From Escherichia coli (GTDB lineage: Bacteria > Pseudomonadota > Gammaproteobacteria > Enterobacterales > Enterobacteriaceae): 64,000 nt of DNA. The stretch is taken from the NCBI RefSeq assembly GCF_050920415.1, contig NZ_CP169309.1; one strand, given 5' to 3'. Positions 2,021 to 25,294 of the stretch are shown here, one piece after another; the first letter of the stretch is position 1, and every line of letters begins with the position of its first letter. Below the pieces are notes generated by a model. It worked only from the letters and a program-made list of their open reading frames with translations, did not search any database and was not told the DNA's origin. The position numbers were made by a program, and so were the translations under genes.

Positions 2021-2914
<894 letters not shown>

Positions 2915-2967
2915 TTACCTCATCAATCGCTTGTAGTTATATGTTGTGTTGTGCACATCTATCCGTT

Positions 2968-2992
2968 TAGACGTCCAGATGTAAAGATGAAG
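2968..2992. promoter_or_regulatory. tandem met-box-like 8-mers (candidate MetJ operator) upstream of metF
   Basis: tagACGTCCAGATGTAAAGATG contains consecutive octamers resembling the AGACGTCT met box, about 60 bp upstream of the metF start. MetJ repression of metF is established; exact position is hand-indexed. Confidence 0.5.
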
Positions 2993-3294
2993 GAAAAGCT
3001 GAAGGGCGTCAACCGAAAAATGACCAATGATGGTGAGGAAAAATCAGGGAAGATGAAAAAAATTCATCTTAATTAGAGGTAATAAATAGATTTCTTTATA
3101 GCGCAATCAACCTCACTCGTTTTGACTGATATACAGGCAACACAACGGCACCTGTTTCTCATTCGAAAAACAACGCCCTGCCACCAGATGGTGATGCTAA
3201 AGCATCTGATTCGGCCTGCGCTCTCGTGTAGGCCGAATACAGAATCTGCGAAATCAACGGGTAACAAACAGCAGAGTCAACTCAGTGCGTACTT

Positions 3295-23501: not shown

Positions 23502-23987
23502 ATGAAATACGATACTTCCGAGCTTTGTGACATCTATCAAGAAGATGTTAACGTCGTGGAACCGCTGTTCTCCAACTTTGGCGGACGGGCGTCGTTTGGC
23601 GGACAAATAATCACGGTAAAATGTTTCGAGGACAACGGGTTGCTGTACGATCTGCTCGAACAGAATGGCCGTGGTCGTGTTCTCGTCGTTGACGGCGGTG
23701 GTTCTGTTCGTCGCGCACTGGTCGATGCTGAGCTGGCGCGTCTGGCAGTACAAAATGAATGGGAAGGCCTGGTCATTTACGGCGCGGTGCGTCAGGTAGA
23801 TGACCTGGAAGAGCTGGATATCGGCATCCAGGCGATGGCAGCAATTCCAGTCGGTGCCGCTGGCGAAGGCATTGGCGAAAGCGATGTCCGCGTTAATTTT
23901 GGCGGCGTCACCTTCTTCTCCGGTGACCATCTTTATGCCGACAATACCGGAATTATTCTTTCAGAAGATCCGCTGGATATTGAATAA
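23502..23987 (+). CDS. rraA: RNase E regulator RraA
   Basis: 161-aa [49 protein letters not shown]... recognised as RraA. Confidence 0.96.
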
Positions 23988-24004
23988 GTACCTGCCATGC
24001 GTTA

Positions 24005-24030
24005 AAAGGGGAATTAAATTCCCCTTTTTT
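24005..24030 (+). terminator. rho-independent terminator after rraA
   Basis: aaaaggggaattaaattcccctttttt: a perfect hairpin followed by a T6 run. Confidence 0.8.
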
Positions 24031-24245
24031 ATATGCAAAATATTCATAAAGACTATCGTTTGTTTTTATTTAATTCATTTTAAATATCAATAGTTCACAT
24101 CTGACAATATAAATTAATTATCGATAAATCATTTCATAAAAATATGCAGCATTAAAAATTAATGCTATATGGTAAATTAACTATTCTGGGAATAGGGATA
24201 TGAATCATCGTTAGTAGCGAACGTATTAAATAATAATGGATTGAT

Positions 24246-24962
24246 ATGAAATACGTTATCTTATTAATACTATGGATAATAACTACTTTTCTTAGTCATC
24301 TTCAGCACAGCAACCTACTGTCTGGAGATCCTGGCATGGTTGGCGAGTATATCGGTTCAGTATTTCTGGGGCCGTTGTTACTTCCCGTGCTTGTGTCAGG
24401 TATTCTGTGCGTATTTATTAAAAAAAAACGTAACTTCGCCAGTTTTACTCGCGGGTGCTGTTGGGTATTGGGAATCCTGCTTTTATCCAAAGTCGGCAAT
24501 ACGTTTCGTATGTTTACCCCGTGACAATATACCTTTGAGAATGCTGCGATAACCGTGACTATCCCGAACCGACACTGGAATACGGTTTCCATTAGTACTA
24601 ATAAAACCATTGATATAAGAAGTGAGGATAATAGCGTCTTCATTTCTGCTTTCCGCCTGCCCGCAGGACGTAGCGCCGATGACCCGCTGGAAGCGTTAAA
24701 GAAGAAGCAGCGAGACAATCTCAAGGATCAATACAATGAGGAAGCCTTCCAGTTTCATGATTGTAATGCCAAACATTTCACCTGTAAGTATCAGGATGTG
24801 TTGATAAATTTTGATGGTCAGCAGAAAAGAACCATCAGTGTTTATCTTGAAGACACCCCTAGGGCTGTGGGGATCATTGCATTAATGGCGCCAGATACGG
24901 CAGATAAATATCGCCAACAGGCGATGGAGATTATGCTTTCCGCTAAAAATGCAGTGAAGTAA
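24246..24962 (+). pseudogene. membrane-anchored ORF interrupted by one in-frame TGA (either a nonsense-inactivated ~238-codon gene or two adjacent small genes of 92 and ~135 aa)
   Basis: ORFs 24246-24524 and 24555-24962 are in the same frame, separated only by TGA at 24522-24524. The N-part has 2-3 predicted TM helices (MKYVILLILWIITTF..., GPLLLPVLVSGILCVFI); the C-part is soluble. An AT-rich leader (24031-24245) precedes it. I do not recognise the family. Confidence 0.45.
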
Positions 24963-25000
24963 AAAATAAGGCGCCTTGCGGCGCCTCTGCGTGGAAGAGA

Positions 25001-25294
<294 letters not shown>

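Follow-up and report, generated by a model that had tools for sequence, protein, structure and literature searches.

The interval between rraA and zapB was analyzed in a 64,000-nucleotide stretch of Escherichia coli DNA (contig NZ_CP169309.1), which is called the window in what follows. About 0.9 kb lies between the two genes here (window positions 24031-24965). What it holds is very probably an accessory gene of long standing in Escherichia that codes for a membrane-anchored protein and has become a young pseudogene in this genome through one base change. This confidence covers the identity of the gene and its status as a pseudogene; the function guessed for the intact protein stands outside it. 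The segment is made up of an AT-rich leader of 215 bp (24031..24245, + strand) followed by two open reading frames (ORFs) in the same frame, one of 92 amino acids (24246-24524, + strand) and one of 135 amino acids with a GTG start (24555..24962, + strand). A premature TGA at 24522..24524 (codon 93, + strand) separates them. All of these elements are found where the initial annotation of the window had placed them. When the TGA is read as Trp, the full gene including the internal stop (24246..24962, + strand) encodes exactly 238 amino acids, the approximate size that had been proposed for a fused product.

The stop arises by a G>A transition at 24524, which changes TGG (Trp93) to TGA. The window TGA aligns with TGG in O157:H7 EDL933, in AR13438 and in four strains that have exactly the layout of the window and carry an intact gene, so the uninterrupted ortholog that the initial annotation advised looking for in other E. 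coli genomes does exist. Trp93 is invariant in an alignment of the Escherichia A- and B-type proteins introduced below (alignment A1). Over the 1,013 bp from 23988 to 25000, each of the four intact strains differs from the window at 7 positions, 6 of which are common to all four and include 24524 (A in the window, G in the others). Apart from the stop, the window gene has no other defect. The other shared differences are at 24229, 24237, 24250, 24412 and 24860, and two of these five change residues (Arg2Lys and Ala56Val). The G>T change at 24237 lies inside a Shine-Dalgarno-like GGGA ahead of the start codon, and EDL933 has T at this position as well. A 61-bp probe centred on the stop matched perfectly in 1 of 5,426 complete E. 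coli genomes (MFDS1022581) and with one mismatch in 109 more. The copy in MFDS1022581 is annotated by the Prokaryotic Genome Annotation Pipeline (PGAP) as a pseudogene with an 'internal stop'. Judged from these genome comparisons, the stop is clone-specific and recent. One of the two readings offered by the initial annotation was the recent inactivation of a gene encoding a membrane-anchored protein, and with TGG in the orthologs and the stop in a single complete genome this is the reading that holds.

The position of the stop is informative. In the AlphaFold2 model described below it coincides with the junction of helix 3 and the first beta-strand (strand E93-97 begins there), and therefore the window allele is inferred to be a loss-of-function allele. 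A stop at codon 93, the first residue of the domain, would leave a bare 92-residue membrane anchor with no working domain. In E. coli, UGA followed by C is a weak, leaky stop, and the tRNA that usually misreads it is tRNA-Trp. Such UGA readthrough could maintain a trace of the full-length wild-type protein.

The gene itself can be placed by comparison with other strains. The segment 24031-24965 is found by megablast in 679 of the 5,426 complete E. coli genomes, in every case on the chromosome. In O157:H7 EDL933, AR13438 and most carriers there are two genes at the site, gene A (224 amino acids) and gene B (208 amino acids according to PGAP). When the window is aligned to the EDL933 and AR13438 loci, homology to gene B begins near 24229 and gene A is missing. 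The O157 allele of gene B is the same gene at the same locus, 3' of rraA and convergent with zapB, and the window protein is 91% identical to it. The alleles of AR13438 and EC42405 are also the same gene at the same locus, with DNA about 99% identical to the window. Paralogs A and B share 30% identity (E = 4e-31). Paralog A resembles the gene in the window, which is gene B, in its architecture and start, its conserved Pro/Trp motif, its Cys pair and its adjacent position. It differs in that the window lacks it and has the 215-bp leader in its place, and in a higher ratio of nonsynonymous to synonymous substitution rates (dN/dS) within E. coli, 0.64.

The start of the gene is probably at 24246, giving 238 amino acids, and not at the PGAP start at 24336, which gives 208. 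Paralog A and all distant relatives start at the position equivalent to 24246 and include the first hydrophobic helix, which a start equivalent to 24336 would remove. Between the window and EDL933, the first 30 codons differ by 6 synonymous and 4 non-synonymous changes, with a dN/dS of 0.16, and the first helix is modelled with a predicted local distance difference test (pLDDT) value of 88-91.

The segment is absent from K-12, as the initial annotation expected: the rraA–zapB spacer of MG1655 is 84 bp long (L004 2762-2845), and its sequence is unrelated to either end of the window segment. The same annotation called the segment an insertion. As a statement of the difference from K-12 this stands, but as a direction of change it does not, since the segment is probably ancestral in the genus and was lost from K-12-like lineages. 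Searching species-representative genomes with alignment A1 turned up gene B in five, all of them Escherichia. Four of them, E. whittamii, E. albertii, Escherichia sp. E1V33 and SCPM-O-B-8794, show the single-gene layout rraA–leader–gene–zapB, and in these the spacer that follows rraA measures about 263 bp. The fifth, Escherichia sp. MOD1-EC7003, is arranged as A+B. The leader of the window is 77-95% identical to the spacers of E. whittamii, E. albertii, E1V33 and SCPM-O-B-8794 (L033, L035, L036, L037, ~2738-3000), and its identity across Escherichia tracks that of gene B (86-94%). Synonymous divergence (dS) between the window and EDL933 is similar for gene B (0.17), rraA (0.13) and menA (0.11), and both the membrane half and the domain half of the gene have dN/dS values of 0.05-0.41 across Escherichia. 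Because the same layout and leader occur in four other Escherichia, because dS is like that of rraA and menA, and because dN/dS is in this range, the segment was most likely inherited vertically and kept under purifying selection, with loss from K-12-like lineages rather than insertion here. The K-12 spacer does not look like a simple deletion derivative of the segment, and its likeness is limited to a similar GC-rich hairpin. The stop codon of zapB is TGA in K-12 and TAA in the window.

The leader was considered separately. Of the 5,426 complete E. coli genomes, 18 have it at this site and none has it at any other place, and it is absent from plasmids. It belongs to no Rfam family and matches neither paralog A nor the rest of the window; it occupies the place of paralog A yet has no similarity to it. 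The GC content is 23-24% over 24000-24299, compared with about 51% for the whole window. On the alignments with the other species, the leader is a native genus-level upstream region, orthologous across Escherichia, and not foreign DNA. It probably contains a native promoter or regulatory region and is a plausible target of H-NS. A consensus scan gave a candidate sigma-70 promoter, TTCACA-N16-AATTAT (24094..24121, + strand), and the five Escherichia leaders all keep its two hexamers without change. The number of promoter-like sites in the region is no higher than chance.

Decay of the gene has been observed in several forms. The window allele has a run of nine A residues at 24420..24428 (+ strand, codons K59-K61), where EDL933 and AR13438 have seven. 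Database products with changes at this run include a frameshift of the window's own allele (P0027) and an in-frame additional Lys (P0003). The tract is probably prone to slippage, a likely hot spot, and it is possible that it acts as an on/off switch. Other decayed products in the databases carry internal deletions (P0008, P0010) or are truncated in several ways, and in Shigella dysenteriae there is a fusion to an insertion sequence transposase (P0017). The gene is absent from 87% of E. coli genomes. Because of this frequent decay and this absence, the gene is dispensable in E. coli.

Structure prediction of the fused translation, which had been suggested as a check, gave three helices and a domain resembling Mog1 and PsbP. 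An early AlphaFold2 model built from 8 sequences was too poor (pLDDT 64) and was replaced by one based on a 22-sequence alignment (pLDDT 86, predicted TM-score 0.74). The fold and architecture given here for the window protein apply to the product in which TGA is read as Trp. Helices are predicted at residues H2-26, H29-57 and H64-90, and from residue 93 onward the model shows a beta-rich alpha/beta domain. The 92-residue part contains all three predicted membrane helices, whereas the initial annotation had given two or three; it was right about the membrane nature of this part and uncertain about the number. By its structural matches, the C-terminal domain is predicted to have the Mog1/PsbP (DUF1795-like) fold, an alpha/beta/alpha sandwich. 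The structural match scores to the model were 13.1 for 3lyd, 12.3 for a cyanobacterial PsbP (2xb3), 12.0 for PA0094/EagT6 (1tu1), 11.1 for LpqN (6e5d), 9.7 for TplEi (5h7y), 9.5 for SciW, 8.9 for Tsi3 (4luq_C) and 8.8 for DcrB (6e8a). Matches in the AlphaFold Database (AFDB) carry the names DUF1795 or PsbP C-terminal domain, and many of them have N-terminal membrane segments. A search of viral structures gave only lipoprotein matches with low TM-scores.

Features of the family alignment suggest how the protein would sit in the membrane. Summed over the 22 sequences, the helix 2–3 loop contains 90 Lys or Arg residues and 2 Asp or Glu residues; the loop between helices 1 and 2 contains 12 and 21, respectively. 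Three residues, Pro107, Trp111 and Cys180, never vary, and Cys173 hardly does. Exactly two Cys residues are present in the C-terminal domain of 20 of the 22 members, and in the model C173 and C180 lie opposite each other on one hairpin, formed by strands 171-175 and 178-189. Because of the basic helix 2–3 loop and the conserved facing Cys pair, a topology with the N-terminus inside and the C-terminus outside is inferred, in which the C-terminal domain would be periplasmic and disulfide-bonded through C173 and C180. The family alignment shows no conserved polar constellation that suggests catalysis.

The family to which the protein belongs is very small, confined to chromosomes, and made up of proteins of about 230-240 amino acids. 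When 1.84 billion cluster representatives were searched with a profile, only 32 clusters came up; those of full length have 227-241 amino acids. The window protein has no significant match in Pfam, NCBIfam, PADLOC or PHROGs, and searches of PDB sequences with the single protein, the full-family profile and the C-domain profile gave no significant match. The best library matches are at chance level (YgiW/BOF OB-fold, E 0.05-0.45; MxiH, 0.44). PADLOC gave 0 families, and with PHROGs the E-values reached 0.15 and 0.22 at best. One of 20 family members matches the Pfam PsbP family (PF01789) marginally, at 8.1e-4. The E. albertii ortholog has the UniRef label 'DUF1795 domain-containing', which was not reproduced with Pfam-A. 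The initial annotation recognized no family. This agrees with Pfam and NCBIfam, but the protein can be assigned to a small family without a name and to a clear fold class. No homologs of the family were found by tblastn in 50,697 phage records, and the single 'plasmid' match is to a 4.9-Mb replicon that is evidently a chromosome. A mobile element was considered and rejected, since neither phages nor plasmids gave a copy and the one plasmid match is to this chromosome-like replicon.

What would the intact protein do? It is only a guess, tentatively held, that it is a non-enzymatic, membrane-tethered periplasmic binding or protective module, by analogy with other proteins of the same fold. Such a module would be tethered at the outer face of the inner membrane, and it may protect or organise a component of the envelope in the manner of DcrB or of Tsi3 and TplEi, which are type VI secretion system (T6SS) immunity proteins. 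The known proteins differ from it in several ways. Compared with proteins of the Mog1/PsbP fold (3lyd, 2xb3, 1tu1, 6e5d, 6e8a), the window protein has three membrane helices as its anchor in place of a lipid anchor or signal peptide, and no significant sequence match to PF08786 or PF01789. Eag chaperones are soluble, cytoplasmic and encoded beside T6SS effectors (prePAAR/Rhs). The window protein differs from these Eag/DUF1795 chaperones by its three membrane helices and by the absence of an effector neighbour in the examined contexts. Several points count against the proposed module and its location. In the window allele, helix 3 has only moderate hydrophobicity and falls below the Kyte-Doolittle threshold of 1.6, and the periplasmic location is drawn from the charge bias and the Cys pair. 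Membership in DUF1795 (PF08786) or PsbP (PF01789) is not established at the sequence level, with no Pfam match for the window protein. A binding or protective role is guessed for a gene with no partner or effector neighbour.

A somewhat less likely proposal is that the intact gene, and the A+B pair elsewhere, serve as orphan immunity or defence genes that neutralise a toxin acting in the periplasm (a colicin or an effector of a T6SS) or interfere with phage at an inner-membrane step, in which case the window has a decayed copy. The initial annotation had raised the related idea of a toxin/immunity or phage-defence cassette. The periplasmic T6SS immunity proteins Tsi3 (4luq_C), TplEi (5h7y) and PA3488 (7wdk_B) do have the same fold as the window protein. 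However, the window gene has no nearby cognate effector and no sequence similarity to them, and it lies at a fixed chromosomal site between core genes. No effector, Rhs, VgrG, PAAR, contact-dependent inhibition (CDI) or T6SS gene stands beside any examined member of the family. PADLOC, PHROG, phage and plasmid searches gave nothing, matches to viral structures are low in TM-score, and gene-wide positive selection is not seen (dN/dS 0.05-0.41). The same fold also serves unrelated roles in PsbP, Mog1, LpqN and DcrB. With a locus that is vertically inherited and genus-wide, the cassette of the initial annotation finds no footing here.

Less probable again is a DcrB-like envelope accessory, for example one that handles lipids or lipoproteins at the outer face of the inner membrane and is redundant in most E. 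coli. DcrB shares the fold, but neither it nor LpqN is similar to the window protein in sequence, a conserved partner gene did not turn up, and the gene is missing from most of the species.

The remaining explanations concern the interrupted frame itself. It is very unlikely that the stop is an error of sequencing or assembly, with G as the true base at 24524 and an intact gene. The difference from the intact strains at this codon is one base, and a base-calling error may be common to related assemblies, which is a point against reading the copy as a pseudogene. However, 24524 is outside any homopolymer, and the RefSeq complete genome MFDS1022581 also has A at this position. Within the 1,013-bp stretch MFDS1022581 differs from the window at 24855, and therefore two separate assemblies with the same stop are suggested, although not proven.

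Even harder to sustain is the second reading of the initial annotation, a two-gene cassette in which a 92-residue membrane peptide and a 135-residue soluble protein would be independent products, such as a small membrane toxin and the partner that goes with it. There are two ORFs in the same frame and the second has a possible GTG start. However, the frame is split in only 1 of the 5,426 complete genomes, another 109 have the same allele type with one probe mismatch, and the five that were sequenced read TGG. All full-length relatives, in Escherichia and in other bacteria, are single polypeptides of about 227-241 amino acids. The GTG at 24555 falls within beta-strand 2 of the domain, no Shine-Dalgarno sequence is seen ahead of it, and no toxin-antitoxin or defence model matches. 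The cassette was rejected because the comparative data show one continuous coding sequence in all intact orthologs; K-12 does not have the gene, and the two ORFs are not conserved as separate genes. The 135-residue ORF is, on these comparisons, an untranslated remnant of the C-terminal domain and no separate gene. Programmed recoding, in which selenocysteine insertion at the TGA or regulated readthrough of it would yield a functional protein of full length, is as remote as the cassette: a near-cognate tRNA-Trp acting at the weak UGA-C stop would give back the original residue, but the ancestral codon and the homologs specify Trp and neither Cys nor Sec, the RNA 3' of the stop is no more stably folded than shuffled sequence (z = 0.62) and has no structure resembling a selenocysteine insertion sequence (SECIS) element, and a UGA in one clone shows no conservation pointing to a programmed event, so that selenocysteine or structured recoding was rejected and any readthrough would be passive leakage.

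The genes that flank the proposed pseudogene are conserved. Upstream, rraA (23502..23987, + strand) is an ORF annotated as rraA in near-identical genomes. It is followed by a hairpin resembling an intrinsic terminator, GGGGAATTAAATTCCCC, found by a hairpin scan at 24008-24023 (+ strand), with a T-run after it to 24030; this hairpin is nearly invariant across the five Escherichia sequences. Downstream, a second terminator-like hairpin found in the same way (24968..24987, - strand) belongs to the convergent neighbour zapB (25001..25246, - strand), an ORF that is also annotated in near-identical genomes.

The distribution of the family outside Escherichia rests on 11 context look-ups. In several Enterobacterales, family members stand directly after rraA (L010, L016, L020, L024 and L027), as well as in the Escherichia loci L033-L037, and they adjoin zapB in L009, L016, L024 and L027. 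In L027 an A-type and a B-type gene again occur in tandem. In the loci linked to rraA or zapB, RraA is 90-98% and ZapB 80-95% identical to the window, but the family members are only 25-54% identical. Rapid divergence could account for this, or old paralog types may have replaced one another. Members outside Enterobacterales stand among unrelated genes. The neighbours seen across the contexts are rraA, zapB, glpF, an esterase/MFS/AraC group, pfkA and a lipoprotein gene. Two loci of other Enterobacterales carry further genes in the gap: a Y1_Tnp (IS200/RAYT-like) gene lies between the B-type gene and zapB in L027 (5001-7072), and a Lipoprotein_9 (NlpA/MetQ-like) gene lies between rraA and the family member in L016 (4796-5614). 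The rraA–zapB gap seems to be a recurrent site of change in gene content. A distant member (P0036, E = 2e-11) adjoins a DUF4225 gene on a short contig (L029 977-1423), and this is the sole context not linked to rraA among the members closest to the Escherichia genes.

The copy in the window matters little in itself, as it is a clone-specific nonsense pseudogene that RefSeq has already flagged in a near-identical genome. The practical by-products of the analysis concern the family. The AT-rich leader is recognized as a conserved region at the level of the genus. The 208-amino-acid PGAP start, which is used for hundreds of E. coli copies, is probably wrong, and the original 238-amino-acid start of EDL933 suits the family better.
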